Positions 22,153-63,153 of a DNA stretch of 64,000 nucleotides are shown piece after piece. Each line of letters begins with the position of its first letter. Within the stretch, counting starts at the first letter, position 1. Under the pieces are notes generated by a model, which did no database searches, was not told the DNA's origin, and saw nothing but the letters and a program-made list of their open reading frames with translations. Origin of the DNA: Tepidisphaeraceae bacterium (GTDB lineage: Bacteria > Planctomycetota > Phycisphaerae > Tepidisphaerales > Tepidisphaeraceae); assembly GCA_035936155.1 (NCBI GenBank), contig DASYWJ010000034.1, positions 66,586-130,585 on the forward strand, given 5' to 3'. A program made the position numbers and the translations under genes.

Positions 22153-22161
22153 GCAGGTCCG

Positions 22162-30333: not shown

Positions 30334-30416
30334 CGACCGTCGCGGCCACCGCGCAGGTCGGTGGGAGAGTGCAGCCCCACGCATCGCGTCCGTGGCTGTC
30401 AGCGAATAGAGGTATC

Positions 30417-31763: not shown

Positions 31764-31880
31764 CCGGCCGCCGCCGGTAATGCGGAGCGGAAAACGGTCG
31801 CGCTGTTGAGCGGCCGCAACCAAAGCGGAGAGAGCGACGACCGCAAGACGAGCAGGACCTTCAACCAACGGGTTCGCACC

Positions 31881-46169: not shown

Positions 46170-46583
46170 CTACCGCCCGCTGCCGGCCTTCTCGCGGACC
46201 GGCTGGGTGAGGAAGAAGCGGCCGATGCAGGCTTCGAACTCCTCGCCCTCGTCGGTACGCATTGTGTAGCTGCCTTCCATCGTCCCCCAGGGCGTCTTCA
46301 GCGGACAGAAACTTTGGTATTTGAACGCCTCGCCCGGCTCCAGGCGCGGAGTCTGGCCGACGACCCCGTCGCCATCGACTTCTTCACGTCGGCCGAGGCC
46401 GTCGATGATCAGCCAGCGGCGGCGGAGCAGCTGCACAGGGACGTCGCCGTAGTTGGCGATCACGATGTTGTAGCCGAAGAAGAACTTTCGGTCCTCCGGA
46501 TCGGACTGGTCCGGAAGGAAAAACGCAGTGGCCCCGACGCGAACGCCGCGGGTCGTGGTGTCGGACATCTCGGGGGTGGCCAT
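46170..46583 (-). CDS. apaG: ApaG (DUF525) protein
   Basis: PVQLLRRRWLIIDGLGRREEVDGDGVVGQTPRLEPGEAFKYQSFCPLKTPWGTMEGSYTM aligns closely with E. coli ApaG ([60 protein letters not shown]). Confidence 0.85.
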   Translation of the reverse strand: MATPEMSDTTTRGVRVGATAFFLPDQSDPEDRKFFFGYNIVIANYGDVPVQLLRRRWLIIDGLGRREEVDGDGVVGQTPRLEPGEAFKYQSFCPLKTPWGTMEGSYTMRTDEGEEFEACIGRFFLTQPVREKAGSGR

Positions 46584-46724
46584 GATGCCTATATCATACG
46601 TCGTGCACGCGAGTGAAGCGACGATTGGCAGTAGCGTCCGCACGGAAAAGCCGCGGGCAGCGCGGTTGAGGACGGTGCTGGTACGTGTGCATCTCGCGCG
46701 GGTGCGACTGCGGCGGGCGGAGCT

Positions 46725-47963
46725 TTAACTCGCTACGACCCGGCTCATGGTAAAGATGGGCAGGAGCAGCGCCAGCGCCACGCCGCCGATGATCAGACCC
46801 ATGATGATAATCATCGCCGGTTCGATGTATCGGGTCAGCTCGGCGATCTGCTCCTTCAGTTCCTGCTCGGCATAGCCGGAGACCTGCTCCATGACCATCC
46901 CCAGCTTGCCACCCTTCTCGCCGCTGTGGAGCATCTGCGAGATGCCGCGGGGAACGAGCGGGCTTGCAAACAGCGGCTCGGACAACTGTTTGCCCGCCTG
47001 GATCTGCTCGGACACCTTCCCCCAGAGCTCACGATAGTACGTGTTGCCGCACAAGTCCTGCGCGGTCTGGACAGCGTCCACGAGATTGACACCCGCCCCC
47101 GCCATCGTGCCGACCATGCGCAGCGTCCTGGCCAGGTGCAGCTTGCGGTACATCTTGCCGAGCAACGGGACGTTGATCTGGATCCAGTGGCCGACGCGCG
47201 CACCGCCCTCGGTCGTAAAATACAGGTACGCCAGCACCCCCGCCGTTGAGAGCCCCGCGATCAGGGCCATCCAATGGCCGACGAGAAAGCCGCTCATGCC
47301 CATCAGAACCTTTGTGGGCATGGGGAGAGCGGCGCCCTTGCCCTCATAGATGCTCGTGAACTTCGGGAGGACGAATGCGAGAAGGAATATGGTCGTGGTG
47401 GTCGCAAACGCGAGCATGATGCCGGGGTATGTCAGCGCGCCCTTCACCTTGCGGAGGATCTCGGCTTCATCCTTGAGGTAGGTGTTCGCGCGGATGAGCA
47501 GCTTCGACATCATTCCGCTCTTCTCGCTCGCCTTGATCAGCGCAACGTAAAGCCGCGGGAAGCTCCGCGGGTGCCGAGCCAGCGAGGCGCTGAAGTCGGC
47601 GCCGCCCTGCACCTGACGGGCGACGTCTTCGACCAGCCTCTTGACGTTCGGACGCTGTGTCTGGCTGGCGATGCAGTCCAGCGCTTCGCTGAGCGTGACG
47701 CCCGTCTCGACCATGATGGCCAGTTGTGTGGAGAACTGGATGACGTCATCGCGCGAGATCTTGATGTTGGGCGCCGCCACCCCGGTGTTCCCGCCCCCCG
47801 TCCCGCCGGACGCGGCGTCGGGGTCGTTCGTCAGATTCACCGCCGTCGGGTACCTGCCCTCCGCGCGCAGCGCCTGGGATGCCTCGGCCACGGAGGCGGC
47901 GGCGATTGTCCCATTCACAAGGGCGCCGGAACTGTCGCGGGCTGAGTAGGCGTATGTGGGCAT
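46725..47963 (-). CDS. pilC: Type IV pilus assembly platform protein PilC / GspF family
   Basis: Two GspF repeats with three TM helices. The start is the ATG at 47963 (MPTYAYSARD). Confidence 0.85.
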   Translation of the reverse strand: MPTYAYSARDSSGALVNGTIAAASVAEASQALRAEGRYPTAVNLTNDPDAASGGTGGGNTGVAAPNIKISRDDVIQFSTQLAIMVETGVTLSEALDCIASQTQRPNVKRLVEDVARQVQGGADFSASLARHPRSFPRLYVALIKASEKSGMMSKLLIRANTYLKDEAEILRKVKGALTYPGIMLAFATTTTIFLLAFVLPKFTSIYEGKGAALPMPTKVLMGMSGFLVGHWMALIAGLSTAGVLAYLYFTTEGGARVGHWIQINVPLLGKMYRKLHLARTLRMVGTMAGAGVNLVDAVQTAQDLCGNTYYRELWGKVSEQIQAGKQLSEPLFASPLVPRGISQMLHSGEKGGKLGMVMEQVSGYAEQELKEQIAELTRYIEPAMIIIMGLIIGGVALALLLPIFTMSRVVAS

Positions 47964-48029
47964 TATCGTAGGTCCGAGCATGGGCCTCTCGCCCATGTTG
48001 TTCTTCAGTGCACGGGCGAGACGCCAATG

Positions 48030-49739
48030 CTACGTAGTCGCTCGATAAACCTCTTCCAGTGTCGTAATCCCCGCCTTTACCTTTTCCATCCCGTCGACCC
48101 GCAGGGTCTTCATGCCCGAGTCCCTGGCCATCTGTCGAATCTCGATGAGGTTAGCGCCCTGGCTAATGCGGTCGACCATCGGGTCATCAGGGACGAACAG
48201 CTCGTAGATGCCGATCCGGCCGACATAGCCGAGATTGCGGCAGCGCGAGCAACCCTTGGGGCGGTAGAGGGTTTCGACTTCGCCAGCCAAACGCTCCATC
48301 TGTCGCTTCTCGTTGGGAGATGGCTCGTAGGGTTCGCGGCAATTCTGGCAGAGCTTGCGGACGAGCCGCTGCGCCAGCACGCCGGCTACCGTCGCGCCGA
48401 CGAGATACGGCTCGATGCCGAGGTTGAACAGCCGGGTGATCGCGCCGGGGGCGTCGTTCGTGTGCAGCGTGCTGAGGACGAGGTGCCCTGTCAGCGCTGC
48501 CTGCGTGGCAAGCTTGGCGGTTTCGGCGTCGCGGATCTCGCCGACCATCATGATGTCGGGATCCTGACGCAAAAGCGCCCGCAGCGCGTTGGGAAAACCG
48601 AACCCCGCCCTCTCGTTCACCTGGAACTGGTTCACGCCGTTGAGCGCGTACTCCACGGGGTCCTCGACCGTGCAGATGTTCGTGTCATCGGCGTTGAGCT
48701 CCTGAAGGACGGCATAAAGGGTGGTGCTCTTGCCGCTCCCGGTCGGGCCCGTGACGAGCACGATCCCGTTGGGCAGGCTGATCAGCTTGCGCCACTGCTT
48801 GAGCGTATCGTAGCCGAAGCCGAGCTTCTCGAGGTTGACCGACGCCTTGTCGTTGTCGATCACGCGGACGACGACCTTTTCGCCGTGCTTGCCCGGCATC
48901 GTGCCGACGCGCAGGTCGATCGGGCGCTTGTCCATCATCACGTGAATGCCGCCGTCCTGCGGGAGGCGCCGCTCGGAGATGTCGAGGCCCGCCATGATTT
49001 TGATGCGGCTCGTGACCGCCGCGGCCATCTGGTGCGGCGGGCGGAGCTTTTCCGTCAGCCTTCCGTCGATGCGATACCGCACGCGCAGGTATCCGTCGCC
49101 GGGCTCGACGTGGATGTCGCTGGCGCCTTCCTTGACGGCATTGAAGATCACGTAGTTGACGAGCTTGATGACGGGCGAGTCTCCCGCAGCCATCTCCAGA
49201 TTCGCGATGTCCTGCACCTTGGCAGTCGTCTCGATCAGCGCGAAGTCTTCGGGCTGGACCTCCTCGATGATGTCGTCGATGACGAACACCTTATCGCTCG
49301 GAAGGTACGCCTGAAGCGTCGCCTTGATGTCGCGCGTTGTCGCGGCCACCACCTGCACCTGGTACCCGCTGAGGCGCTCGATCTCCTCGAGCAGGAACAC
49401 ATTCGCCGGCTCGGGCACGGCAACGGTGAGCACGCCCTCGATGAGGAACAGCGGGAGGACCTGGTGCTTCTCGAGGAATTCCTTCGGAAGGACCGAGATG
49501 ACTTTGGGGTCCGCGATCTTCGGGCTCACCCGCGCGTAGGGCACGCCGTACGCCTGCGCCAGCGCCTCGGTGATCTGGTCTTCCGAGCAGATACGGAGCT
49601 CCACGAGGACTTCCCCGAGCAGCTTCTGGTGATTGCTGCGCTTCTGCTCCTCCAGCGCGCGATCAAGCTGCTCGGGCTTGACCAGCCCCTTCGCAAGCAG
49701 GAGCTGGCCGAGAGGTTTTCGTTGCAGTGTGGCGATCAT
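48030..49739 (-). CDS. pilB: Type IV pilus extension ATPase PilB / GspE family
   Basis: N-terminal GSPII_E N domain, Walker A GPTGSGKSTT, Asp box, Walker B and a tetracysteine C-terminus (CQNCREPY...CSRC). The start is the ATG at 49739 (MIATLQRKPLGQLLLAKGLV). The tracked ORF has an 81-aa junk extension. Confidence 0.9.
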   Translation of the reverse strand: MIATLQRKPLGQLLLAKGLVKPEQLDRALEEQKRSNHQKLLGEVLVELRICSEDQITEALAQAYGVPYARVSPKIADPKVISVLPKEFLEKHQVLPLFLIEGVLTVAVPEPANVFLLEEIERLSGYQVQVVAATTRDIKATLQAYLPSDKVFVIDDIIEEVQPEDFALIETTAKVQDIANLEMAAGDSPVIKLVNYVIFNAVKEGASDIHVEPGDGYLRVRYRIDGRLTEKLRPPHQMAAAVTSRIKIMAGLDISERRLPQDGGIHVMMDKRPIDLRVGTMPGKHGEKVVVRVIDNDKASVNLEKLGFGYDTLKQWRKLISLPNGIVLVTGPTGSGKSTTLYAVLQELNADDTNICTVEDPVEYALNGVNQFQVNERAGFGFPNALRALLRQDPDIMMVGEIRDAETAKLATQAALTGHLVLSTLHTNDAPGAITRLFNLGIEPYLVGATVAGVLAQRLVRKLCQNCREPYEPSPNEKRQMERLAGEVETLYRPKGCSRCRNLGYVGRIGIYELFVPDDPMVDRISQGANLIEIRQMARDSGMKTLRVDGMEKVKAGITTLEEVYRATT

Positions 49740-49744
49740 GAGCA

Positions 49745-49817
49745 GTTGCTGGTTGTAGTTGTCAATTGCTAGTGAAATGCGGGTTGCTGCTCTGCACTGG
49801 CAACGGCAACCAGCAAC
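49745..49817. promoter_or_regulatory. Nested inverted/direct GGTTGC/GCAACC repeats upstream of pilB; putative operator
   Basis: GTTGCTGGTTG (49745-55) is the reverse complement of CAACCAGCAAC (49807-17). Additional GGGTTGCTG and GGCAACGGCAACC copies lie between them. Confidence 0.4.
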
Positions 49818-49831
49818 TAACAACTCTTTCC

Positions 49832-50170
49832 TCACCTCATTGTTTTCAGCGCCGCCGCCAGGTCGGGTTGACACTCGAACCGGTGTTCCAGCCGCGTGAT
49901 CTCGAGGATCTTGCGGACGTTCTCGTCGAGATTCACCAGCTTCACCTGACCGAACAGCTCTTCGGCCTTGCGCTTGATCCACAGCAGGGTCTCGAGCCCC
50001 TCGCTGTCAACAAATCCGGCTTTTTCGAAGTCGATGACGAAGTTGACGATCTGCTTTGCGTCGATGTGCTGCTCGACGGCCTGGCGCGCCTGGGCGCTGT
50101 TCTCGGCAACAAGGTCGCCGGCCGGAGCGATCACGCAGACCTGGTTGTACTCTTCGTACTTGATCGCCAT
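49832..50170 (-). CDS. STAS-domain anti-sigma-factor antagonist (SpoIIAA-like)
   Basis: MAIKYEEYNQVCVIAPAGDLVAEN... The conserved phosphorylatable segment FVDSEGLETL is present. Confidence 0.8.
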   Translation of the reverse strand: MAIKYEEYNQVCVIAPAGDLVAENSAQARQAVEQHIDAKQIVNFVIDFEKAGFVDSEGLETLLWIKRKAEELFGQVKLVNLDENVRKILEITRLEHRFECQPDLAAALKTMR

Positions 50171-50179
50171 GGTCAACAC

Positions 50180-50266
50180 TGTGACGGGGTGAGCGGGTGA
50201 CGGGGTGACGGAGTAAAGGCACCTTGATTCCTACTCCGTCACCCCGTCACTCCCTACTCCGTCACC
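50180..50266. terminator. Inverted array of GTGACGGGG / CCCCGTCAC heptamer-like repeats forming a long hairpin between the HD-GYP and STAS genes
   Basis: gtgacggggtgagcgggtgacggggtgacggagta...tactccgtcaccccgtcactccctactccgtcacc. Confidence 0.45.
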
Positions 50267-50270
50267 TCCT

Positions 50271-52010
50271 CTACGCCACCCGCAGCGTCGGGGTCATTTC
50301 GGCCAGCCGCTTGGTCTGTTCCTGGTGATTGCGGATCAGCTCGCGAAGCTTGTCGCAGCTGATCTGCAGGAAGGCCTCGCTCATCCGCGGGTCAAAATGA
50401 GTACCCGAGCAGCGGCGCATCTCCGCCAGCGCCACCTCCAGCGGCAGCGCCTTGCGATACGTGCGGCTGGAAGTCATCGCATCGAAGCTGTCGGCAAGGC
50501 AGATGATGCGGCCCATGAGTGGGATGTCCTCACCGGCGAGCCCGCCTGGATAGCCCTTGCCGTCATACCGTTCGTGGTGGTGCAGCACGCCGGGGATGAT
50601 GTCCCGGATCTGCTTGATGTCCTGGAGGATGCGTGCCCCGATCTCCGGGTGCTTCTTGATCTGCTCGAACTCCTCGGGCGTAAGCCGGCCCGTCTTCTGC
50701 AGCACCACTTCGGGAACCCCGATCTTGCCGACGTCGTGCAGCAGCCCTGCCATGTACACGCGCTCGACTTCGTACTCGCTGAGCCTGGCCTGTTGGGCCA
50801 GGTGCCGGCTGAGCAGCGCGACGCGCTCGGAATGACCGCAGGTGTACGCGTCCTTTGCGTCAACGGCGCTCGTAAGGCTGTGCAACAGCCCCATCATCAG
50901 CCCGTGCACGTCCTCGAACAGATTGGCATTTTCCAGGTAGATCGCCGACTCGTTGGCGATGGAACTGAGCAGCTTACTGTCGACGGAGTCGAACTCCCCG
51001 CCCGTTGTCTTGTCGATGCCGAACAGCACGCCGAGCACCTGGTCCTGCCGCATGAGCGGGACCGCGATCAACTGCTTGGCGTACTCGGCGAGCCAGAGGA
51101 AATATTTATCGCGATGCAGGTCGTTGATGAGCAGCGGGCTCTTTTTCTCGCTGAGTAGGCGCGTCAGCTCGCTGGCCAACCGGTGCACCTTGCCCGGCGG
51201 GAGACTGAGGCTCCCATAGAGCACGGGCTCGGTCTGATGAACGCCGCCGGCGAGCGAGACGCCCATACCGCGGACGTTCATCACGCCCATGACATCAACA
51301 CATGTGCCTTTGAAGAAGTCGCCGGCGCGGCGATTGATCTTCATACCGCCACTGATCTGGTAGATGAGGCTCAGCTCTTCGTAGGTATTGGCCAATTGCC
51401 CGGAGAGGGAATCCAGCTCCTGCTCGAGGCTCGCCAGGCGCATCTGGTCGCGGATCATCCCGTGCAGCAGCCGCGCTTGGCGGAGAATCGTCTCGTCGTT
51501 GTAGGTTGAAAGCGTCTCGGCCTGCTGGTTCAGCCAGATCCCATCAATGCCCAGCCGCGAGCACACGCGCACAACGTCCTCGCCCAGGCGGAATGCGGTG
51601 CTCTTGCCCGCGAGCAGCAGCACGCCGGCGATGGCGCGCTTTTCGACGTACGGAAACGCCGTGAGCGTGACGCCCGGCAGCACGTTCCACAGCTCGACCG
51701 TCGAGCCGGCGCCAAGTGCGGCGACTTTGTGGCGGAGCCCCTGGTCGACGGCGTCGGCGTATTGGATCATGGGGAGGACGAACCGCTGGAAGAAGAGCCC
51801 TCCGCTGGCATCGTGGTACGCAACGGAGCCGTCGGGGCGCAGCATCAGGAGGAACAGCCCGCCCGGCCGGAACCGAGCCGCGAGGCTGTCCAGCACCGCG
51901 TTCGGCAGCGCTGGGGCGACGCGGACCGTGGCGCCGGGCATGCCATCTTTCGCGATGGCGCCGGGGCCCGCAGCGGCGGCGGCGACTGGCTTCTCCGTCA
52001 ACTTCAACAT
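50271..52010 (-). CDS. HD-GYP domain phosphodiesterase (c-di-GMP) with N-terminal GAF-like sensor region
   Basis: LLHDVGKIGVPE and HHHERYDGKGYPGGL are HD-GYP signatures. The start is the ATG at 52010 (MLKLTEKP). Confidence 0.8.
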   Translation of the reverse strand: MLKLTEKPVAAAAAGPGAIAKDGMPGATVRVAPALPNAVLDSLAARFRPGGLFLLMLRPDGSVAYHDASGGLFFQRFVLPMIQYADAVDQGLRHKVAALGAGSTVELWNVLPGVTLTAFPYVEKRAIAGVLLLAGKSTAFRLGEDVVRVCSRLGIDGIWLNQQAETLSTYNDETILRQARLLHGMIRDQMRLASLEQELDSLSGQLANTYEELSLIYQISGGMKINRRAGDFFKGTCVDVMGVMNVRGMGVSLAGGVHQTEPVLYGSLSLPPGKVHRLASELTRLLSEKKSPLLINDLHRDKYFLWLAEYAKQLIAVPLMRQDQVLGVLFGIDKTTGGEFDSVDSKLLSSIANESAIYLENANLFEDVHGLMMGLLHSLTSAVDAKDAYTCGHSERVALLSRHLAQQARLSEYEVERVYMAGLLHDVGKIGVPEVVLQKTGRLTPEEFEQIKKHPEIGARILQDIKQIRDIIPGVLHHHERYDGKGYPGGLAGEDIPLMGRIICLADSFDAMTSSRTYRKALPLEVALAEMRRCSGTHFDPRMSEAFLQISCDKLRELIRNHQEQTKRLAEMTPTLRVA

Positions 52011-52049
52011 CTGACTTTCCTCGCGATGCCCCAGCACGACCAAGCCCGC

Positions 52050-52430
52050 TCAGGCAGCGGCGCCCGATAAAACTTCCTCGACCGTGGCCAGCAGGTGCCG
52101 CGGACTGAATGGCTTGCTCAGCATCCGCAGAATGCCGCTTTGTTCCGTATCCGCAGGCTCCAACTCATACCCACGCGCCGTCAGCATGATTGCCGGAATG
52201 TTTGCCGTCACCGAATCCTGCTTCAGCCGACGGCACAGCTCGATGCCCGACATCTGCGGCATGTGATAGTCGGTAATGAGCAGGTCCGGCTTCTCCTGCT
52301 GTGCGATCTCCAGCGCTTCCTGCCCGTCGCGCGCTGTCAGGACGCGGTAGCCGGCGTTCTTCAGCTTCAACGACACGACGTGCAGGATGTGACTTTCGTC
52401 GTCGGCGACCAGGATGGTTCGTTCGTTCAT
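52050..52430 (-). CDS. Single-domain CheY-like response regulator
   Basis: ILVADDESHILHVVSLKLKNAGYRVLTARDGQEALEI...DLLITDYHMPQMSGIEL...MLTARG...LSKPF. Confidence 0.9.
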   Translation of the reverse strand: MNERTILVADDESHILHVVSLKLKNAGYRVLTARDGQEALEIAQQEKPDLLITDYHMPQMSGIELCRRLKQDSVTANIPAIMLTARGYELEPADTEQSGILRMLSKPFSPRHLLATVEEVLSGAAA

Positions 52431-52524
52431 TTTGCTCTCCACGCCCCACTCGCTTGTTCTTTGTGGGTCAAGGTTGGCGGTTCCATCAGATCACAACCTC
52501 AAACCTCAGCCCCTCCGACAACAC

Positions 52525-53970
52525 TCACTCGCACAAGTCCATTTCAAAGCCGAACGAACTGCCCTTCCCGGCCTGGCTTTCCACGAAAATCCTTCCCTTG
52601 TGGACGGTCTCGACAATGTGCTTCACCAGCGACAACCCCAGCCCGGTGCCCTTGGCCATCCGGTTGTTCGCCTCTGCCCTGTAGAACTTATCGAACACAA
52701 ATGGCAGGTCCTTGGGTGGAATCCCGACGCCTGTATCAGAAATGCGGGTGGTGATCTTTTTCTTTGCCTCGTCAACGTGTGTTAGGACGGCAATCTCACC
52801 GCCCTCGGGCGTGTACTTCACCGCGTTGCTCAGCAGGTTCAGCACCGCCTGGTACAGCATGTCGCGGTCGGCAAGGGTCTGATAAAAAATGGGCGGGAGC
52901 TGGTCCTTTACCGTGATCTGCTTTGCCTTGGCCTGCGGCGCGATCACTTCGAGCGCCTCTTTCAGAATTACGGCCAGGCTCTGCGGCTGCTTGTTGATCT
53001 TCACCAGCCCCGACTCGATGCGGCTGATGTTCAGGATGTTATCGATCAGGCGCGACAGCCGGTTGGCCTCGTTCTGGATGACGTCGTAAAACTCGCGCAT
53101 GGTCTTCTCGTCGTCGGCCTCGCCGTCGATGAGCATCTCGACGTAAGCCTTGATGCTGGCCAGCGGGGTGCGGAGCTCGTGCGAGACGTTGGAGACGAAG
53201 TCATTCTTCATCTCCGCCACCTCCTTCTCCTTGGTCATGTCGTGAAGCACGGCGACGACGCCCGCCGGCATCTCCCGCTGGTCGGTGACGCACGAAAGCG
53301 TGATCTTGAACGTGCGGTCGCCGAGCCCTGTCCTGACCATGTGCTCGACAATGCGGCGCCCGCCCCGCGTGTCGCTTTGCCGCATTTCGCGGATCATCTC
53401 GATCACCTTTTCATCCGAGAGGACGCGCTCGAGCGGCATGCGGCCGACGCTTTCCAGTTCGAAGCCGAACGTGCGGGCGGCAGACTCGTTGGCCAGCACG
53501 AGGTCATCGAACGGATCGGTCACAAGCACGGCATCGGAAATGCTGTAGATGATGGCCTCGGCGTGCTGCCGTTGGGCGGTGGCGACCTTGAGCTGGATCT
53601 CCGTTTCCTTGACCTTCAGCGCCGCGTCCGAGATCGACTGCTCGGTGCACTCCAGCAGCTCGTTGAGCGTGCGCGCCAGGGCCAGCATCTCCGCGTGCGA
53701 TTCCTCGACGCGGGTAAGCTTGCGCGTCTCGTTCATGCGCTGGAGCTCGCGGACAAGCCGCCGCCGCGCGGTCCGCAGCGACGCGACCATCAGCAAGCCG
53801 CTGGCCGCGCCCAGGATGTAAAAAGTGGGCTCCAGAACCTGGTGCAGCTGGGGATCGCGCTCGTACCGCAGCGCGTTCGCCAGGTCATATCCCGAGCACA
53901 CCGCGCCAACGGCGCAGAACAGCACCGTCAGGAGGAAGAGGATCTGTCCCCGGTGCACCCGCATTTCCAT
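52525..53970 (-). CDS. Membrane sensor histidine kinase (2 TM, PAS, HisKA, HATPase_c)
   Basis: H-box NDFVSNVSHELRTPLASI, N-box, and G-boxes GTGLGLSLVKHIVE. A PAS-like segment sits upstream. The start is ATG 53970 or 53964. Confidence 0.85.
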   Translation of the reverse strand: MEMRVHRGQILFLLTVLFCAVGAVCSGYDLANALRYERDPQLHQVLEPTFYILGAASGLLMVASLRTARRRLVRELQRMNETRKLTRVEESHAEMLALARTLNELLECTEQSISDAALKVKETEIQLKVATAQRQHAEAIIYSISDAVLVTDPFDDLVLANESAARTFGFELESVGRMPLERVLSDEKVIEMIREMRQSDTRGGRRIVEHMVRTGLGDRTFKITLSCVTDQREMPAGVVAVLHDMTKEKEVAEMKNDFVSNVSHELRTPLASIKAYVEMLIDGEADDEKTMREFYDVIQNEANRLSRLIDNILNISRIESGLVKINKQPQSLAVILKEALEVIAPQAKAKQITVKDQLPPIFYQTLADRDMLYQAVLNLLSNAVKYTPEGGEIAVLTHVDEAKKKITTRISDTGVGIPPKDLPFVFDKFYRAEANNRMAKGTGLGLSLVKHIVETVHKGRIFVESQAGKGSSFGFEMDLCE

Positions 53971-54077: not shown

Positions 54078-55253
54078 CTACTCATTCAGGTTCACCGAGG
54101 CCATGAACCTGGCCGCCATTTCGTCATTCGGCTTCAGCCGCAGGGCCTTGCTGTAGTACTGGATCGCCTGGTCCGGCTTGCCGAGGCGTTCCAGGACGTA
54201 TCCGACCATGCACAGGCTGACCGTATCGCCCTCGTCCAGCGCGCTGGCCTTTCGGAACGCCGGCAGCGCGTCGGCGAGCCGGTTCTGGCGAAGCCGCATG
54301 TAGCCGAGCATCAGGTGCGCTTCGCTGTTGTCGGGCGCAATGGCCAGTGCCTTGTGGAGCGAGACTTCGGCACGCTTAGTATCATTGAGCTGGATGGCCG
54401 CTTTGGCATGGCTGAGCCACACGCCGGCCGACGCCGGATCGCGCTGCGTTGCCGTCTCCAGCGTCGCCCGCGCCTCGCGGTATTGTCCCAGCTGCAGCTG
54501 GCACTCGCCCAGTGCCGCCAGCAGGTCGGCGCGGTCGGCGTAATCGCCCTTCTTCATCAACCGGTTGAGCGCATCAGCGGACTCGCGGTATTGGCCGGCG
54601 TAGAACATCGCCAGCGCGAGGTGCTCGCGGATCACCAGGTCGTCCGTGGCGAGGATGCTTGCCTGGCGGAGCATGTCGACGCCTTCCTTGTAGCGGCGCT
54701 GCTGGACGAGCAGCTGCCCGAGGGCATCGCGGATCGTGGCGCTATGCTCGAAATAGGTGACTTTGGATTGGAGCAGCGACAGCGCCTGCTCCGGCTGATC
54801 CATCAGGACGAGCATCTCCGCCCGCGCCATGATGTATGCCAGCTCCGCCGGCGCCTTTTCGCTCGCAGACTTGTAAAAATCGGAGGCCGTCTCCGGTTTC
54901 TGCCACCGCTGGTAGATCACGCCAGCGAGGTAGTCGGCTTCGGCGTTCTTCGGCGCCACGGCGCGGGCCATCCTCAGCTCCGCCTCGGCCTGTTCCAGGC
55001 GCCCCTGCTCGATCGCAAGTTTAGCCGAGAGAATGCGCAGCCCCGGGTTTTGTGGGTCCATCCCCAGCGCTTCCTCGGTGGTTTGGCGGCTCTTGTCGAA
55101 GTTGCCGGTGGCGTATTGATCGCGGGCGAGGCTGAAGAGAACATTCGCGCGGGCCTGGTTCCATTCCTTCTTCGCCTGTTCCTTCTGCTTGTTCTTCATC
55201 GGGCTGCACCCGACGACGAGCAGGACAGCAGCGAGGAAAGCAGCGCATTGCAT
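54078..55253 (-). CDS. TPR-repeat lipoprotein (PilF/PilW-like pilus biogenesis factor)
   Basis: MQCAAFLAAVLLVVGCS is a lipoprotein signal. About 9 TPR units follow. It sits next to the secretin gene. Confidence 0.65.
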   Translation of the reverse strand: MQCAAFLAAVLLVVGCSPMKNKQKEQAKKEWNQARANVLFSLARDQYATGNFDKSRQTTEEALGMDPQNPGLRILSAKLAIEQGRLEQAEAELRMARAVAPKNAEADYLAGVIYQRWQKPETASDFYKSASEKAPAELAYIMARAEMLVLMDQPEQALSLLQSKVTYFEHSATIRDALGQLLVQQRRYKEGVDMLRQASILATDDLVIREHLALAMFYAGQYRESADALNRLMKKGDYADRADLLAALGECQLQLGQYREARATLETATQRDPASAGVWLSHAKAAIQLNDTKRAEVSLHKALAIAPDNSEAHLMLGYMRLRQNRLADALPAFRKASALDEGDTVSLCMVGYVLERLGKPDQAIQYYSKALRLKPNDEMAARFMASVNLNE

Positions 55254-55429
55254 AGCACGTCCCATTGATCATCTCCGGTGAAAGCGGTGGTCCACCCACT
55301 TCTTCGGCGAGAAGCTGGGGGGAGTTGATCAGTTGTGCCGGATCGCCGCGGAGCGTGTTATCGGAAATGGAAACGGCCGCGCGTGACACAGATCACGCGC
55401 GGCCGTTCATTGATATTGAAGCTTGCGTC

Positions 55430-57550
55430 TTACTTGGACTCAAGCTCGATAAAGGCCTGGCCCTCGACCTCTTCAATCGGCAGCTCGGTCACAGCACTGT
55501 CCGACTCGGCCGCGGGCTGGGTCGCCGGGGCCGCAGCGAACTCGCCTTCGACCTCTTCGGCATAGCCCTGCATCAGCTCTTCGGTTACCTCTGCGACGGT
55601 GGGCTGGGTCGTCGGCGCCTCAGCCACAAGAGGCTGGGTCGTCGGCGCCGCAGCCGCGATGGGCTGAGTCGCCGGCGCCGCCGAGATCGTCACGTCGCGC
55701 GGTCGCGTCGTCGGCCTCGTTGTGGTCGTGACCGGGACAACGTCCTCAAGCATCATGCGGCGGACGAAGCTCCGAACTGAGCTGCCATCGGAGGTCGTGA
55801 CTTCCCGACCCGTCAGCTCCTGCTTCATCTCGATCGCCTCGATCATCTTCGGATTGAGGTTCGTAGCGCAGTTCAGGTGCCACAGAGCCGTCTTGCGGTT
55901 GGGGCGGTCCTTGGTCATTTCGCGTTTGGCCGACTCAAAGGCCGACTCAGCGAGGCGCTCGCGGCCGAACCACATCATGCCACGCCGGGTGCCGACGCGG
56001 AGCTGTTCGATGCGCTTCAGCTCCTCTTCCGACAGCGCGTGCATCGTGACTTCGTCCTTCACGATGTGCGGGGTCAGCAGGACGATCACCTCTTCGCGAA
56101 CCGTGCGGTCCCGCGTCGAACGGAAGGCCGCCCCGATGAGCGGAATGTTCCCGAGGAACGGAACCTGGCTGCGGTTGGCCGTGCTGCTCTCGCGGAACAG
56201 ACCGCCGATCACCAGCGTGTGCCCGTCCTTCAGCATCACGTTGCTCGTGATCTCGGTCGTGCTCTTGCTGGGCAGGCCGTTGGCCTTCACTTCACCGGCC
56301 GAATCCTCCGGGTGGATTTCCATTCGAATGTACCCGTCGGCGGCGATGTAGGGGCGGAAGATCAGCCGGGTACCGGTCTTGAGCGTCTCGACAGTTTCCG
56401 AGGTGGTGGTTTCCGTCGTGATCGTCGTCTTGTAGCCGTCTTCGTTACCCACGAAGACCTCGCCCTTTTGCTTGTTGAGCGTGAGGATCTTGGGGTTGGC
56501 GAGGATCGTCGTGTCCGTCGTCTGCTCCAGGGCCTTGAGGAACACTCCGATGTTGTTGCTCACGAACCCGAGGCGTAAGCCGCCATTGGGGACGTTGTTG
56601 GTGAAGCCGGTGTCGCCGCCGCCATACCCGTTATCGAGCACATTGCCCGCATCCGGGTTGTTGATGATGCCGCCGCCGACCGCGTCGCCGGGGCTGCTGC
56701 CAACGGCATTGACGCCGTTGAAGTCGACGCCGCCCAGCACGGAGAAATCGATGCCGAAGGCGTTGTCCTCATTGAGCACGGCGCGGCAGATCACGGCTTC
56801 CAGGAGGATCTGCTGCGGGCGCTTGTCGATCTCGTCCAGGATCATCTTGACGCGATCGAGGTTCTCCGGATAGTCGGTGACGACAAGCATGTCGTCGGTC
56901 GCGTGGTCGTTGCCGCCCAGGCCCGAAATGCCGCTCTCGATGCCCGACAGAGCCGGCGTCGTCACGACGCTCTGGCCTGCGGCGCTCATGACCGGCTTGA
57001 TCATGTTCTGCGCATTCAGTGCCGGCGTGTAGTACACGCGGAAGACGCGCGTCTGCATGCGCAGCTCAGCCTTCTCAATCTCGGCCAGTTCCTTGGTGGT
57101 GTAGACGTAGATGAAGTTGCCCTTCTCGCGATAGGCGTAGCCGTTGGCGTGAAGGATGGCGTCGAGGGCCTCGCGGACGGTGACGTCGTAGAGGTTGGCG
57201 GTGACGGAGCCGCGAACGTCCTTACTGGGGAGAATGTTCTTCTGCGTCTGCAGCGAGAGCATGCGCAGGACTTCAACGAGATTCGCGTCGTTGACATGAA
57301 TCTCGACGACGCCGGCGTCACTGACGCTGACTTCGCTGCTGCTGACGCTCTGTCCCTCGCCGGCGGCGGGTGCGGCAGGCTGAGTCGCCGGGGCGGCAAA
57401 CGGGTCCGATTCCTCAAGCACCTTCACGTCGGTGGTGCTGTCGGGGGCCGGCATTGCCCGTTCCCCCGCGAGCGCCACGCTCGCCTGATTGGAATAAACG
57501 GACGATGCAGCCAAAAAAAGAAGCCCTGCGGTCTTGGTCCACGTGCGCAT
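55430..57550 (-). CDS. pilQ: Type IV pilus secretin PilQ (GspD/secretin family) with repeat-rich C-terminal extension
   Basis: Signal peptide and N-domains. Secretin core (VVTDYPENLDRVKMILDEID...GGLFRESSTANRSQVPFLGNIPLIGAAFRS...VLLTPHIV). C-terminal APATQP / APTTQP repeats are encoded by a 33-bp tandem repeat at about 55600-55700. Confidence 0.9.
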   Translation of the reverse strand: MRTWTKTAGLLFLAASSVYSNQASVALAGERAMPAPDSTTDVKVLEESDPFAAPATQPAAPAAGEGQSVSSSEVSVSDAGVVEIHVNDANLVEVLRMLSLQTQKNILPSKDVRGSVTANLYDVTVREALDAILHANGYAYREKGNFIYVYTTKELAEIEKAELRMQTRVFRVYYTPALNAQNMIKPVMSAAGQSVVTTPALSGIESGISGLGGNDHATDDMLVVTDYPENLDRVKMILDEIDKRPQQILLEAVICRAVLNEDNAFGIDFSVLGGVDFNGVNAVGSSPGDAVGGGIINNPDAGNVLDNGYGGGDTGFTNNVPNGGLRLGFVSNNIGVFLKALEQTTDTTILANPKILTLNKQKGEVFVGNEDGYKTTITTETTTSETVETLKTGTRLIFRPYIAADGYIRMEIHPEDSAGEVKANGLPSKSTTEITSNVMLKDGHTLVIGGLFRESSTANRSQVPFLGNIPLIGAAFRSTRDRTVREEVIVLLTPHIVKDEVTMHALSEEELKRIEQLRVGTRRGMMWFGRERLAESAFESAKREMTKDRPNRKTALWHLNCATNLNPKMIEAIEMKQELTGREVTTSDGSSVRSFVRRMMLEDVVPVTTTTRPTTRPRDVTISAAPATQPIAAAAPTTQPLVAEAPTTQPTVAEVTEELMQGYAEEVEGEFAAAPATQPAAESDSAVTELPIEEVEGQAFIELESK

Positions 57551-57649: not shown

Positions 57650-58285
57650 CTACTTCATCGGTATCTCGAGCTTGATGCCCTCGCGCTCGATGATGATCCG
57701 CCGTGCCTCGATCTTGGAGACACGGAACCCGGCGACGACACTTCCTTCGCCCACCATCTCTCCGTCGATGACCACCTTTGGCGAGGCGCCCATGACGATC
57801 GTCTGCAACTGCATTCTGCCGGCATCGCGCACCGCGTTGTCGATGCGAATCTGCCGCTGCTTATTCTGATCGGCTCGAGAGGAGAGCGACTTTGCCAACT
57901 CCTCCCAGAATCCTTCCTCAACCCGGCTTACCGGGGCCACCGGACGACCCCCGGCGTGGGCGTAGTGGTCGAGCGGGATGGTAAAGAGGTTTCTGACAAT
58001 CGGGCTGACCGGGGCCGCGCGCCACTCGGCCAGCGCCGCGGCGCTGGTTGCGCTGATCACCGTCCCGCGTCCCGCCGTGCCGACCCGCGCGAGTACTTCG
58101 TTATCGGACGCCGCCGCCGTTGCGGCGCCGGCGCCCTGCGGCCCCCCGCCGTCCTTCATCGCCATGCGCAACCACATCGTGCCCAGCACGGCCACAAGCA
58201 CCACCAGGACGACCGCCTTCTTCGGGTCCGCCTTGGCTGCTTCCAGCAGCTTCGCCATCGCGTTGCTCGTGTGGGGGGCGGGCAT
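57650..58285 (-). CDS. pilP: PilP-like pilus assembly protein
   Basis: The ATG at 58285 overlaps the pilO stop as TGATG, preceded by GGAGAGG. An N-terminal hydrophobic segment is followed by a C-terminal beta domain (VVIDGEMVGEGSVVAGFRVSKIEARRIIIEREG). Confidence 0.6.
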   Translation of the reverse strand: MPAPHTSNAMAKLLEAAKADPKKAVVLVVLVAVLGTMWLRMAMKDGGGPQGAGAATAAASDNEVLARVGTAGRGTVISATSAAALAEWRAAPVSPIVRNLFTIPLDHYAHAGGRPVAPVSRVEEGFWEELAKSLSSRADQNKQRQIRIDNAVRDAGRMQLQTIVMGASPKVVIDGEMVGEGSVVAGFRVSKIEARRIIIEREGIKLEIPMK

Positions 58286-58839
58286 CACCTCTCCGTGTAG
58301 TAGATGTTCATCGAGAGGCTCACGTCGACGACGCCGGAGCCCGGCCTTTTGGTCCGCATGCTCAGGTCGCGGACGCGCGTCAACCGCTGCATCTGCTCCA
58401 TCTGCCGCAGGAACGAAAAGACGCTGAGGAAGTCGCCCTCGAACTTCACATGGATCGGGAACTCGACAAACAGGTCGTTCGGCTTGGCCCCGGTCGGGAT
58501 GATGTGGCAATCGCGCAGCCCCGCCTGGTCGCGCAGCAGCGTGATGTCGTTGAGGAACTGTCCCCACTCGACCTGCCGCGGCAGCTGCTTGTCGAACCGC
58601 GCCAGCCGTCGGTGCAGCTCGTCGACTTCGAGCTGGAGCGTATTGCGGATTGATGTCTCACGGCGGTTAGATTCGATTTCGCGCGTTTTGAGATCAATCT
58701 GCGCCCGCAGCTCATGCTGTCGAGCCGTGCCGGGGCGGTACACGAACAGGTAAAACGCCGCGCACAGCACGATGAAGAATGACCCCAAGACCCACTGGGC
58801 CCGCGCACACCAACCAGCTTGGCTCTGTAACGTCCGCAT
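58285..58839 (-). CDS. pilO: Type IV pilus assembly protein PilO
   Basis: N-terminal TM helix, coiled-coil, and a C-terminal segment ending ...VDVSLSMNIYY. Confidence 0.7.
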   Translation of the reverse strand: MRTLQSQAGWCARAQWVLGSFFIVLCAAFYLFVYRPGTARQHELRAQIDLKTREIESNRRETSIRNTLQLEVDELHRRLARFDKQLPRQVEWGQFLNDITLLRDQAGLRDCHIIPTGAKPNDLFVEFPIHVKFEGDFLSVFSFLRQMEQMQRLTRVRDLSMRTKRPGSGVVDVSLSMNIYYTER

Positions 58840-58850: not shown

Positions 58851-59501
58851 TTAAGCCCCCGCCAGGTCGTTGAGGTTCATCGAGAAGTACACTTCAAACT
58901 CGCGCATCACCCGGCCGTCATCCACGCGGGGCTTGGACCCGGTCATGCGGACGTCTTCGAAGAACGGCTTGCCGGTGAGCCGCGTGAGAAAGTCAGCGAC
59001 CTCGACGTCGGTCGGGGCGATGCCTGTCACCCGCACGATCAGCCGGCGGTCGACCGAGGGTTCCTTGTCCTGGGCCGCGCGAGCGCCGGCGAGCGTGATG
59101 GGGTGCGTCTCCTCCGTGAGCAGCGACAGCTCAAGCAGCGCGGTGCTCCTGGGCATCACCTCATCAAGCGTCGCGAGCAGCCGCGCGGCCTCGGTATGCG
59201 TTCCCACCTTCGACAGCACCTTCGACTGCTCGACCAGCTTCTTCCGCAGCGTCATCAGCTCTTCGACGACCTTCAGCTCGCTCCGCGATGCGCTCAGCTC
59301 CGCCTCGCGGGTGCGCAGCGTCGCCTCCTCGCGGCGAATGTTTCGACCGGACTGCATCATCCAGAGCCCCAGTGCGAGCATGACGATGACCGTCATCCAC
59401 GCCTGCAGCATGACATAGCGGCGGCGGCGGCGGACCTGCGGGTACCAGCGAGGCAGGAATTCAACTTCACGCACGGGCCACCTCCTGCGGCGGAGGCGCA
59501 A
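58851..59501 (-). CDS. pilN: Type IV pilus assembly protein PilN
   Basis: A PilN-like N-terminus (FLPRWYPQVRRRRRY) precedes a TM helix, then coiled-coil and a periplasmic domain. Confidence 0.7.
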   Translation of the reverse strand: MRLRRRRWPVREVEFLPRWYPQVRRRRRYVMLQAWMTVIVMLALGLWMMQSGRNIRREEATLRTREAELSASRSELKVVEELMTLRKKLVEQSKVLSKVGTHTEAARLLATLDEVMPRSTALLELSLLTEETHPITLAGARAAQDKEPSVDRRLIVRVTGIAPTDVEVADFLTRLTGKPFFEDVRMTGSKPRVDDGRVMREFEVYFSMNLNDLAGA

Positions 59502-60783
59502 CGGGCGGGCGGCGCGTTGCGGCGGTGGCGGCGCGCTCGGCGGCGATTGCGGTTGCCCCTGCGGGTGAGCCGGCGGACGTGGCGCTCACGGCGGCGTTCA
59601 GGTCGACCACTTCGCCTTTGGGCGCCAGCGGGATCAGGTCCTCGCGCAGCGCAAACGGATCACGCGGCTTCCCATCGCGCGCGCCGAACGTGCCCATCGC
59701 CTGACGCAATCCCAGGCCCAGCGCCAGCGACCACTCGGACATCGTCCCGCGGCGCTCCGAGGCTTTCATGCGGCTCGTGTCGACGCTGAACAGGGGACGG
59801 CTCGCCTCCACGGGGATCGGCAGCGCGGTGTTCAGCACGCTGTGCAGCTGGGGGTCGCACGCCTCGCCTCCCACCAGTCGCACCTTCTCCGGCCGCTGGC
59901 CCCGGAACGTGACGGAGAAGTAGCGGAGGCACAATGAGATTTCGCGGCCGAGGTCTTCCATCGCACTTCGGCCGGCGTCGAAGACGGCTTGACGGACCGG
60001 ATCGCTCTTGGCGGCCTCGATCGGATCGAGCGGCCCCGCTTCGGCGAGCCGGCGCCGCAGCGCCCGTGCCTCGTCAAATGTGATCCCGAGCTTCGCGCTC
60101 ACCGCTTCGTGCATGTGACGCGATCCGATCTCGATGGGTTTGAGAAAGCTGATCTCGCGCCCGCGCCCGATGATCACCTGGCTCCGCCGCGCGCCCACGT
60201 CCACCAGGACGTGCACATCGGCCTCATCCTCGCGCCGGCGGATAAACCGCTCGATTGTGCGGTACAGGGCGAACGGCTCCACATCGAGCGATGCGATTAC
60301 GGCTCCGCTGCAATGCAGCTGCTCGACAAAATCATTGACGTCCGCATTACGAGCGGCGAGCACGATCAGCTCCTGGCGCACGTCCGCCCCCTGGCGGACC
60401 TCGCCGGCCATGCAGTGCTCGACGTGCGCCTGGTCGGTGTCGAAGGGAAAAATGTTGCGCGCCTCGAACTCGATGGCGGCGGCAAGCTCGTGCGGCGGAA
60501 TCATCGGCAGCCGCAGGTTCTTCACGTGGACGATCTCCCGGGGGAGCGACGTGATCACCTGGCGGCCGATGAACCCGCCCTGCCGAAGCATCTTGCGGAT
60601 CATGTCGACGGCCAGCGGCATCCGAAGCTGCGGCTGCGCCCGCACGTCCTCGGGGAGCTGCTGCCGCGCCGCCGCGATCACCGAGAGCGACTGCCCCACC
60701 GTTTCGAGCTGCAGCATCTTGATGCTGTCAAACCCGATATCGAGGCCGATCGGCTGAATTTGGGACCGTGTGAGTCGAATCAT
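59467..60783 (-). CDS. pilM: Type IV pilus assembly protein PilM (actin-like ATPase), second paralog in the window
   Basis: The ATG at 60783 gives MIRLTRSQIQPIGLDIGFDSIKMLQLE. EFEARNIFPFDTDQAHVEHCMAGEV matches the PilM signature. The C-terminal extension overlaps the pilN start. Confidence 0.85.
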   Translation of the reverse strand: MIRLTRSQIQPIGLDIGFDSIKMLQLETVGQSLSVIAAARQQLPEDVRAQPQLRMPLAVDMIRKMLRQGGFIGRQVITSLPREIVHVKNLRLPMIPPHELAAAIEFEARNIFPFDTDQAHVEHCMAGEVRQGADVRQELIVLAARNADVNDFVEQLHCSGAVIASLDVEPFALYRTIERFIRRREDEADVHVLVDVGARRSQVIIGRGREISFLKPIEIGSRHMHEAVSAKLGITFDEARALRRRLAEAGPLDPIEAAKSDPVRQAVFDAGRSAMEDLGREISLCLRYFSVTFRGQRPEKVRLVGGEACDPQLHSVLNTALPIPVEASRPLFSVDTSRMKASERRGTMSEWSLALGLGLRQAMGTFGARDGKPRDPFALREDLIPLAPKGEVVDLNAAVSATSAGSPAGATAIAAERAATAATRRPPVAPPPQEVARA

Positions 60784-60858: not shown

Positions 60859-61455
60859 CTATTCGGTGACGGTGATCTCTCCCGTGTACCGTTCGATCGT
60901 GACCGTGATCGTGCGCACGCCGCACTGCAGCACGATCGTCCCGTCGAGCATCTCGTTGGTGTTGTTATGGTCGTAGCGATAGACGAGCGGCGTCCCAAGC
61001 TCGTCGAACGTCAGGGTCTGCGCCGGGCTGTAGGTGATGTCGACGCCGTTAAACACAGCCGACTGGATCCGCACGTCCGACATCCGTGAGCCGCCCGCCG
61101 GGCCCAGCTTCGTGATGAACGGGTCCTTCGTGATGGGATTCTGGATTACGCTGTCGAGACCTGCGGGCCCGGCTCGATCCATGAGGCGGTAATTCTCGGC
61201 ATCGGCATCGAACTTGACGTAGATTTGCTTCTGCTGCGAAATGGCGAGGTTCTGCGCGTAAATCAGGTCGGAAATGAGAACACGGGCGGCGGCGCGGACT
61301 TTGAGGTCATCGCGCGAGCCGATCTGCGGGGCAATGATCGCGCTGGCGATCCCAAGGATCACCACCACCATCAGGATCTCGATCAGCGTGAACCCGCGCG
61401 ACTGACGTGAGGCGCGAGCCACTGCGAGCTTGCGATGCGTGTGAAGCGTAAACAT
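60859..61455 (-). CDS. Prepilin-type N-terminal cleavage/methylation domain protein (pseudopilin / minor pilin)
   Basis: RGFTLIEILMVVVILGIASAIIAPQ. The start is ambiguous: ATG 61455 gives a 21-aa leader, and a later alternative start is possible. Confidence 0.75.
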   Translation of the reverse strand: MFTLHTHRKLAVARASRQSRGFTLIEILMVVVILGIASAIIAPQIGSRDDLKVRAAARVLISDLIYAQNLAISQQKQIYVKFDADAENYRLMDRAGPAGLDSVIQNPITKDPFITKLGPAGGSRMSDVRIQSAVFNGVDITYSPAQTLTFDELGTPLVYRYDHNNTNEMLDGTIVLQCGVRTITVTIERYTGEITVTE

Positions 61456-61537
61456 GCTCACCTTCTGTTCACGAGCAACGCGCACCCGCGACGCCGCGCT
61501 TTCCCGCCCGTCGCCGGGACGTCCGGCGACGCGGCCG

Positions 61538-61801
61538 CTATTTGCCCTTGGCGGGGGCTTCCTTAGCTTCATCGGGCGTTGTAACACGCACCTGAAGCTC
61601 GCCCCTGAGCAACTGGATTATCTGATCCAGCTTCGCATTGGTCTCCCGCTGCGCCTCGACCATCTGCAGCCGCTGCGTGCCGGGGTCGATCGCCTGTGCA
61701 TTGGCGGATGGGAGCTGGTTGCCGGCGTTACCGGACCAGAGGCTCGCCAGCGTCAATCCCTGCAACACCACCACAGCCACGAGTAGTTTCGACGAATTCA
61801 T
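61538..61801 (-). CDS. Small secreted hypothetical protein
   Basis: MNSSKLLVAVVVLQGLTLASLWSG is a signal peptide, followed by an 60-aa charged helix. Confidence 0.45.
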   Translation of the reverse strand: MNSSKLLVAVVVLQGLTLASLWSGNAGNQLPSANAQAIDPGTQRLQMVEAQRETNAKLDQIIQLLRGELQVRVTTPDEAKEAPAKGK

Positions 61802-61834
61802 GTCACACATTCCTTTCGAATCACCTGGAAAAGG

Positions 61835-63097: not shown

Positions 63098-63153
63098 ACG
63101 GAGCTCCGGAACACACCATACAATTCAAACACCGGCCGAGGCGTCGCGGCTGG

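Follow-up and report, generated by a model that had tools for sequence, protein, structure and literature searches.

A four-gene regulatory cassette of familiar components kept beside pilB in Phycisphaerae-type Planctomycetota, a likely controller of the pilus motor

Type IV pili serve attachment, motility and DNA uptake, and the switching of their motor is understood in a few model proteobacteria, cyanobacteria and Thermus. In Xanthomonas, the sensor kinase RpfC and the REC-HD-GYP protein RpfG form a two-component-driven phosphodiesterase system that affects type IV pilus function. A direct wiring, in which the assembly ATPase itself binds cyclic di-GMP (c-di-GMP), is known for Vibrio MshE and Thermus PilF (PMC5013675, PMC7096442, PMC11731258), and c-di-GMP-bound MshE promotes pilus extension (PMC7096442). 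FimX and PilZ couple c-di-GMP to the PilB assembly ATPase in Xanthomonas and Pseudomonas (PMC8389850, PMC5595344). For STAS proteins there are two precedents: in Nostoc, a partner switch on which pilus motility depends has a STAS protein as its output (PMC6495340), and the STAS protein HsbA binds the diguanylate cyclase HsbD (PMC5085249). Here we describe a locus in 64,000 nt of contig DASYWJ010000034.1 (the window) from a member of the Tepidisphaeraceae (Phycisphaerae, Planctomycetota, Planctomycetes–Verrucomicrobia–Chlamydiae (PVC) group), in which genes for a histidine kinase (HK), a stand-alone receiver (REC), an HD-GYP phosphodiesterase and a single-domain STAS protein, together called the cassette, stand directly upstream of pilB and pilC.

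We observed that all six genes from the kinase gene to pilC lie on the minus strand with gaps of 94, 39, 100, 92 and ~66 nt, their domains being identified by Pfam and NCBIfam (coordinates in Table 1). The original prediction, made from the letters of the window alone, had described four co-directional regulatory genes with short gaps in front of pilB and pilC, which is correct (39–107 nt, the 107 nt separating the TPR lipoprotein gene from the kinase gene), and both databases agree with the domain content that it proposed, namely a PAS kinase, a stand-alone receiver, a GAF-HD-GYP protein and a STAS protein. The limits that it gave to the cassette, 49832–53970, agree with an independent gene call for the same genome (L087), in which STAS stops and the kinase gene starts at these positions. 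The cassette does stand directly upstream of pilB-pilC; what had been omitted is that it is embedded within a full pilus cluster. In the direction of transcription the order is minor pilins, pilMNOP, pilQ, TPR lipoprotein, kinase, receiver, HD-GYP, STAS, pilB and pilC, and matches to PilM_2, PilN, PilO, Secretin and the TPR lipoprotein are all present in the window. The cassette is embedded between pilMNOP-pilQ-TPR and pilB in one pilus supercluster. The sequence is GC-rich (~63%), the PilB start was chosen from orthologues of 567–568 amino acids, and a Tepidisphaeraceae metagenome-assembled genome (MAG) encodes a protein with 100% identity to the HD-GYP protein.

For the comparison with relatives two samples were used. 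The first comprised 80 listed species-level genomes anchored on PilB without presupposing a cassette, with PilB identity falling from 91% to 59%, and the second comprised 80 further listed metagenome contigs anchored on the most divergent PilB. Colinearity was read by tblastn with the proteins of the window, and all counts for relatives are among the matches listed (80 or 120), almost all of which are cassette-bearing or family members. The six-gene order was found to be conserved. Among the loci of the first sample, 74 have 4.6 kb or more of upstream DNA, and 71 of these show the four cassette genes in order before PilB; PilQ-TPR-HK-REC-HD-GYP-STAS-PilB-PilC is colinear in nearly all loci. 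The second sample gave a complete cassette in 34 of the 36 contigs with enough upstream DNA, HD-GYP plus STAS in 54 of 56 loci and STAS immediately 5' of PilB in 72 of 73. The full cassette occurs in ~95% of the sampled related Planctomycetota loci, and PilC comes next after PilB in 76 of 82. This order is retained down to ~56–59% identity for PilB, ~28% for STAS, ~33–38% for HD-GYP and 43–48% for the kinase. Median gaps in the clade, from the kinase through pilC, are 32, 6, 8, 35 and 38 nt (REC-HD-GYP 6 nt, HD-GYP-STAS 8 nt, STAS-PilB 35 nt), and genes overlap in many loci (REC/HD-GYP in 28 of 75, HD-GYP/STAS in 31 of 78). The conserved block stops at pilC; beyond it the order is scrambled, and clustering the open reading frames (ORFs) of related loci downstream of pilC gave no family in more than five loci. 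The arrangement is far beyond chance. Because the order is kept despite this divergence, with short gaps, overlaps and scrambling past pilC, we regard it as strong evidence of selection on linkage, and the short gaps and overlaps argue strongly that the genes would be co-transcribed in most species. The deep conservation of the gene order and the overlaps in relatives support a functional connection with the pilus ATPase. The adjacency could in principle be an inherited gene order without any functional tie to the pilus machine, and if all sampled loci belong to one clade, as they may, a single ancestral insertion would suffice for it. However, this view was already disfavoured and we consider it very improbable, since the order has outlasted the divergence of STAS and PilB given above while the genes downstream of pilC were scrambled, genes overlap in many species and all catalytic residues are under conservation.

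The loci with incomplete cassettes show which neighbours stay together. In the first sample, L067 is without the kinase gene and L083 without the kinase and receiver genes, in whose place there is a 633-nt non-coding gap; L023 has no cassette gene, and tRNA-synthetase and sugar-metabolism genes precede its pilB. Elsewhere, pilB-pilC occurs without the cassette (L091), without the kinase gene (L167) and without the HD-GYP gene, REC and STAS being kept (L117). The STAS-pilB pair is the most persistent one and outlasts the loss of the kinase (L067, L083, L167) as well as that of HD-GYP (L117). The TPR gene is kept 5' of the kinase gene in most relatives. In a metagenome sublineage (L126, L138, L139, L144, L146, L148, L151, L159 and others) no TPR match was found and the PilQ and kinase matches lie ~1.8 kb apart; here the kinase gene seems to follow pilQ directly. 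Cassette-bearing MAGs are titled Tepidisphaerales, Phycisphaerales or Sedimentisphaerales. MAGs titled Isosphaeraceae or Planctomycetaceae (L065, L047, L079 and others) carry the cassette as well. Such labels may be unreliable, and the Isosphaeraceae-type ones were not trusted because among named relatives the L065 HD-GYP protein is nearest to Phycisphaerales MAGs. Searches with an HD-GYP protein from an 'Isosphaeraceae'-labelled MAG and with a profile of divergent STAS proteins likewise gave almost only cassette-bearing or family members among the matches listed. The suggestion of a PVC-specific solution goes beyond what is seen: among the matches listed the cassette is demonstrated in Phycisphaerae-type Planctomycetota, and no wider claim is made for the PVC group.

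The surrounding genes favour a type IVa-like pilus over a type II secretion system, because PilM_2/PilN/PilO genes, a TPR lipoprotein and an MshEN ATPase are present and a PilT-sized ATPase is found in nine relatives. This second T2SSE ATPase (333–353 amino acids) stands between PilB and PilC in some lineages, namely in 7 of the 80 loci of the first sample plus L085 and L086, and no PilT was found in this cluster or in the rest of the 64 kb window. Loci noted with a PilT-sized insert are L050, L052, L054, L063, L069, L072, L077, L085, L086, L101, L140 and L167. The NCBIfam assignments of two components are less sharp: the secretin ties between the PilQ and GspD models, and the TPR lipoprotein, whose N-terminus reads as a lipobox-like LLVVGC, reaches 90.9 bits with PilW, below the cut-off.

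At its N-terminus PilB carries an MshEN/GSPII domain that has homologues in Vibrio MshE, Thermus PilF and Geobacter PilB and that passes NCBIfam NF053729 ('c-di-GMP_motif, MshE-related') with 60.1 bits against a cut-off of 38. We compared motif I, PLGQLLLAKGLVKPEQLDRALEEQ, with the 24-residue consensus RLGxx(L/V/I)(L/V/I)xxG(L/V/I)(L/V/I)xxxxLxxxLxxQ and found agreement except at position 1, which is Pro, Gln or Arg in the clade and where the relaxed motif permits Pro (PMC5013675). G11, G18 and Q32 of this motif occur in 80–81 of the 82 PilB sequences. Motif II, LLGEVLVELRICSEDQITEALAQA, retains LG and the Leu/Ile core, with an invariant Leu for Arg as its first residue, and the spacer between the motifs has 7 residues instead of 5, as in Geobacter PilB. 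GSPII-B of PilF, whose motif II starts with Leu, binds c-di-GMP at 6 nM without arginines (PMC11731258). Taken together, binding of c-di-GMP by the PilB MshEN domain is probable as far as the motifs can tell. The wiring had been called different from the textbook. PilZ and FimX parts are lacking (PilZ, GGDEF and EAL had no Pfam match in the scanned ORFs of the window); the MshEN domain had been missed, with which a c-di-GMP link needs no new receiver.

Orthodox two-component features are present in the first two cassette proteins. The kinase matches HATPase_c (99 bits), HisKA (76 bits) and PAS (29 bits), begins with two hydrophobic segments that read as transmembrane helices joined by a ~20-residue loop, and has the H-box SHELRTPL, which is conserved in an alignment of 75 orthologues. 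With this normal HisKA H-box, the idea that the kinase is a disguised STAS kinase was rejected. In the receiver, the acidic pocket, Thr and Lys (D14, D15, D58, T88 and K110) are found in 74–76 of 76 sequences, with no exception for D58 and K110; it has no output domain and no DNA-binding domain. Given their adjacency, kinase and receiver are probably a cognate pair. The HD-GYP protein consists of a disordered N-terminus, a GAF/Roadblock-like alpha-beta domain, a long helix, a GAF domain and the HD-GYP domain, whose HD_5 match lies far above the Pfam cut-off of 27 bits. It has the metal-ligand set of the HD superfamily (H...HD...H...HH...D) and the GYP motif: HDVGK, HHHERYDGKGYP and DSFDA align residue for residue with PmGH (4MCW) and are at least 90–95% conserved in 78 orthologues. 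REC and HD-GYP are separate genes here and not members of the RpfG type with fused REC-HD-GYP. However, the receiver matches the REC part (profile 1–115) of the fused NCBIfam family NF053512, and receiver and HD-GYP protein match its respective halves; by this 'Rosetta stone' argument the pair would work like a split RpfG-type regulator. The catalytic residues are intact, and the substrate may differ from the predicted c-di-GMP, as discussed below.

The fourth protein passes the anti-sigma-factor-antagonist model TIGR00377 (61.6 bits, cut-off 53.45) and fits the single-domain type with a phosphorylatable Ser in a DS(x)G(L/I) loop. Its DSEGL (D55-S56) aligns with DSAGL of TM1442 and DSSG of SpoIIAA, S56 being at the position of their phospho-serine; D55 is present in 80 of 80 orthologues and S56 in 79 of 80. 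One homologue (P0310) carries a JGI label for the HsbA orthologue group. Both the model and the serine would suit a classical partner switch, in which the STAS protein counteracts an RsbW-type anti-sigma kinase encoded at a distance, a sigma factor sets the expression of pilin or other genes, and kinase, receiver and HD-GYP protein feed in. We think this unlikely. The absence of an RsbW/RsbU-like gene from the window, noted before, was borne out by a Pfam scan of ~45 sizeable ORFs, which found no SpoIIE and no HATPase_c_2 reaching the cut-off (the cassette kinase cross-matches below threshold with 21.1 against 27.4 bits), and no gene for RsbW, a PP2C phosphatase or a sigma factor accompanies the cluster, either in the window or as a conserved neighbour in ~160 related loci. 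Also, STAS is kept beside pilB where the rest of the cassette is incomplete, no DNA-binding domain is present in the receiver, and in the Nostoc Hmp system the output is the STAS protein, which is suspected to act on a target other than a sigma factor (PMC6495340). Because STAS stays by pilB and no anti-sigma kinase is linked, we favour direct action on PilB and/or the phosphodiesterase. A specific form of this, which we offer tentatively and would not bet on, is that STAS is a phospho-switchable adaptor that binds PilB directly and recruits or releases the HD-GYP protein, forming a local cyclic-dinucleotide complex on the motor. This would explain why the STAS-pilB pair persists where the kinase or HD-GYP gene is lost, and, if true, such an adaptor would be a new output class of partner-switching proteins, by which a type IV filament ATPase is controlled directly without an anti-sigma factor. 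As for the joint gating of pilus extension that had been proposed, the tie to the ATPase stands by conserved order and overlaps, and the partner-switching step is only suggested by the invariant phospho-serine, with no kinase or phosphatase linked to it.

On balance, we believe that the cassette, fixed in the Phycisphaerae-type pilus cluster, is dedicated to a type IVa-like pilus motor and controls it post-translationally. In the chain that we infer, the membrane-anchored kinase would use its PAS domain to sense a cue from the cytoplasm or the membrane and would phosphorylate the stand-alone receiver, which in turn would modulate the adjoining GAF-GAF-HD-GYP phosphodiesterase as the partner in a split RpfG-type pair. 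The phosphodiesterase would reduce local c-di-GMP, and the MshEN domain of PilB would read this level and set the activity of the assembly ATPase, bound c-di-GMP favouring extension if the analogy with Vibrio MshE holds. STAS with its invariant phosphorylatable serine would act as a second switch, most likely by binding PilB and/or the phosphodiesterase and not via a sigma factor; the genes for its kinase and phosphatase would lie elsewhere. The synteny evidence is neutral with regard to direction and would equally suit a reverse flow, in which PilB or pilus activity, e.g. upon surface contact, is the input and the cassette changes the cellular c-di-GMP pool for adhesion or exopolysaccharide. 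PilB has reportedly been proposed as a signalling protein for exopolysaccharide in Myxococcus, and the cassette has a degrading enzyme alone and no dedicated effector. However, PilB bears the only recognisable c-di-GMP receptor domain of the block, and the PAS sensor and membrane anchor of the kinase suggest an independent input, and we regard such a reversal as rather improbable.

A scan of the coding strand for terminator consensus sites found none in the cassette spacers, including STAS/pilB, and such sites occur 3' of pilQ and 3' of pilC. Because of this, with a hairpin after pilQ and a stem with T-tract after pilC, the data suggest that the TPR gene through pilC form one transcription unit. 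The pilQ hairpin (55372–55407) has a perfect stem followed by a T-containing tail, and the PilQ/TPR spacers of relatives are hairpin-rich too (in L058 a stem is followed by T9); it may mark a conserved end of transcripts, or attenuate them, between pilMNOPQ and TPR-cassette-pilBC. The spacer between HD-GYP and STAS folds strongly as RNA (-58.7 kcal/mol, z = -7.6), and its GTGACGG(A/G)GT motif shows enrichment over the window, with 7 matches where 1.3 were expected. This spacer is at most 20 nt or an overlap in most relatives compared to 100 nt here, and the 92 nt between STAS and pilB are also unusually long. The nearest relative, L005, has the same palindromic element in both spacers. The palindromes look like lineage-specific intergenic elements, similar to repetitive extragenic palindromic (REP) elements, inserted in an otherwise tight operon, and the hairpins could attenuate or process the transcript. 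Other palindromes, made of heptad repeats, were seen at the STAS/pilB junction of L037, L034 and L003. A scan for sigma-70 promoters, whose consensus is uninformative for this phylum, gave 0 sites against 1.5 expected.

Several observations weigh against the proposed control of the motor by c-di-GMP. Two PilB loci, L023 and L091, have no cassette upstream; no diguanylate cyclase is linked to the cluster; and none of the ~160 related loci has a linked STAS kinase or phosphatase. In the window the spacers measure 39–107 nt, two of them with strong hairpins, and internal promoters may exist in this genome. For the ATPase, NCBIfam does not separate PilB (604 bits, cut-off 676) from GspE (605 bits, cut-off 630). 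The terminal Gln of motif II is replaced by Ala or Gly in the whole clade, its turn Gly is often lost (R, G, N or H in the clade, Arg here), and c-di-GMP is not bound by GSPII-A of Thermus PilF, whose motif II is degenerate. Finally, the best match by sequence of the HD-GYP domain (50271–50900) to a solved structure is the 3'3'-cyclic GMP-AMP (3'3'-cGAMP)-specific V-cGAP3 (5Z7C, E = 3.6e-47), with the c-di-GMP enzyme PmGH coming second (E = 3.5e-37), and the substrate may accordingly be other than c-di-GMP. From these last points one could construct another messenger, the HD-GYP protein hydrolysing 3'3'-cGAMP or another cyclic dinucleotide and the deviant motif II of MshEN being tuned to that ligand or to none. 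The motif II deviation is consistent throughout the clade, and MshEN binds cGAMP also, more weakly (PMC5013675). However, substrate specificity of HD-GYP domains is not readable from overall similarity, the PilB motif passes a c-di-GMP model and no cGAMP synthase is linked to the cluster, and we judge a messenger other than c-di-GMP to be quite unlikely.

Table 1. Positions of the cassette, the pilus cluster and associated sequence features in the window
Feature	Position	Strand	Evidence
Histidine kinase, PAS-HisKA-HATPase_c, membrane-anchored, 481 aa	52525..53970	(-)	Pfam; longest ORF to 53991
Stand-alone receiver (CheY-like), 126 aa	52050..52430	(-)	Pfam Response_reg 93.8 bits
HD-GYP phosphodiesterase, 579 aa	50271..52010	(-)	HD_5 143 bits; GAF matches weak
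HD-GYP/STAS spacer, palindromic GTGACGG(A/G)GT repeat hairpin	50171..50270	(-)	RNA fold
STAS protein, single-domain, anti-sigma-factor-antagonist type, 112 aa	49832..50170	(-)	PF01740 59.8 bits; TIGR00377
STAS/pilB spacer with moderately stable hairpin	49740..49831	(-)	RNA fold -35.3 kcal/mol, z = -3.6
PilB-type assembly ATPase, 569 aa, N-terminal MshEN	48030..49739	(-)	T2SSE 456 bits, MshEN 72 bits
Candidate c-di-GMP-binding tandem motif, PilB residues 9-63	49551..49715	(-)	NF053729 60.1 bits
PilC/GspF-type platform protein	46725..47963	(-)	Pfam T2SSF 174 bits, two repeats
TPR lipoprotein (PilF/PilW/Tgl-like), directly 5' of kinase	54078..55265	(-)	Many TPR Pfam matches
15-bp GC-rich hairpin 23 nt 3' of pilQ stop	55372..55407	(-)	-40.1 kcal/mol, z = -4.9
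Secretin pilQ	55430-57550	(-)	Pfam Secretin, STN; L087 gene calls
pilP-like	57650-58285	(-)	L087 gene calls
pilO	58285-58839	(-)	Pfam PilO; L087 gene calls
pilN	58851-59474	(-)	Pfam PilN; L087 gene calls
pilM	59467-60783	(-)	Pfam PilM_2; L087 gene calls
Two prepilin-like genes (G|FTL(A/I)E motifs) and PilX/GspK-like gene	60859-63888	(-)	
Terminator-like stem and T-tract just 3' of pilC stop	46651..46665	(-)	Consensus scan only
ApaG (DUF525) gene, 3' of pilC and terminator-like site	46170-46643	(-)	

The ApaG gene adjoining pilC is unrelated to the cluster and lies next to it in no related locus. Long antisense ORFs, such as that of 581 amino acids opposite pilB (48027–49772, plus strand), were discarded as high-GC artefacts by codon-position GC. 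Elsewhere in the window, at 27970–33836 on the plus strand, a second and much larger PilM_2/FtsA-like protein (787 amino acids) is followed by two large ORFs (30261–31763 and 31764–33836) with no Pfam match; this region may encode a second, divergent PilM-based apparatus. A DUF1559 protein with a prepilin N-methylation motif (9902–10978, minus strand) is distant from the pilus cluster. At 20773–24346 on the minus strand, an alginate-export-like outer-membrane protein and a 200-amino-acid ORF without Pfam match precede a FecR-like protein, and this may be a surface-signalling unit.

In the papers searched we found no description of the four-gene cassette or of a STAS gene fixed beside pilB, and neither the combination of STAS, HD-GYP and type IV pili nor that of Phycisphaerae, pilB and pilQ was found. 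Every component and every pairwise link has a precedent, and the combination of the four genes appears undescribed. The clade consists of abundant and mostly uncultured Planctomycetota of soil and sediment, which keep a fixed four-part module by the motor gene. The neighbouring genes offer a compact system to reconstitute, with two-component input, phosphodiesterase, STAS switch and MshEN-type ATPase, that could reveal the role of orphan STAS proteins without an anti-sigma factor and the organisation of local c-di-GMP signalling at the pilus motor. Should the cassette prove ordinary after all, it still provides a reliable annotation rule for Phycisphaerae pilus clusters.

Compared to the described systems, the locus is closest in its ATPase to Vibrio cholerae MshE/MSHA, Thermus PilF and the PilB proteins of Chloracidobacterium and Geobacter, which share the N-terminal MshEN/GSPII domain, there a c-di-GMP receptor. 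The order of secretin, TPR protein, ATPase and platform genes is similar to mshL-(M)-N-E-G. In contrast to the MshE type, kinase, receiver, HD-GYP and STAS genes are inserted here between the TPR and ATPase genes, motif II of PilB is without the terminal Gln, and binding is predicted from the sequence. With RpfC/RpfG the locus would share a two-component input that drives an HD-GYP protein. However, REC and HD-GYP are separate here, the HD-GYP protein has a tandem GAF-like sensor region instead, the genes stand inside a pilus cluster, a STAS gene is added and no genes for the synthesis of diffusible signal factor (DSF) are present. In HmpU-HmpV-HmpW of Nostoc punctiforme, the single-domain STAS protein HmpV is the output for type IV pilus motility and its target is no known sigma factor (PMC6495340); the Hmp PP2C phosphatase and serine kinase are encoded with the STAS protein, whereas here no such partners are linked and the STAS gene abuts pilB and the HD-GYP gene. 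In HptB-HsbR-HsbA-HsbD of Pseudomonas aeruginosa, a phosphorylatable STAS protein joins a phosphorelay to a c-di-GMP enzyme, motility and biofilm (PMC5085249). There the partner of HsbA is a diguanylate cyclase, the kinase/phosphatase HsbR (REC-PP2C-kinase) is adjacent and the targets are flagellum and biofilm, while here we find a phosphodiesterase, a bare receiver and the pilus ATPase. Unlike in FimX-PilZ-PilB, coupling would go through PilB's own MshEN domain. Given its place just upstream of pilB here and in ~95% of the sampled related loci, the cassette would very likely be a controller dedicated to the pilus motor and put together from familiar components.

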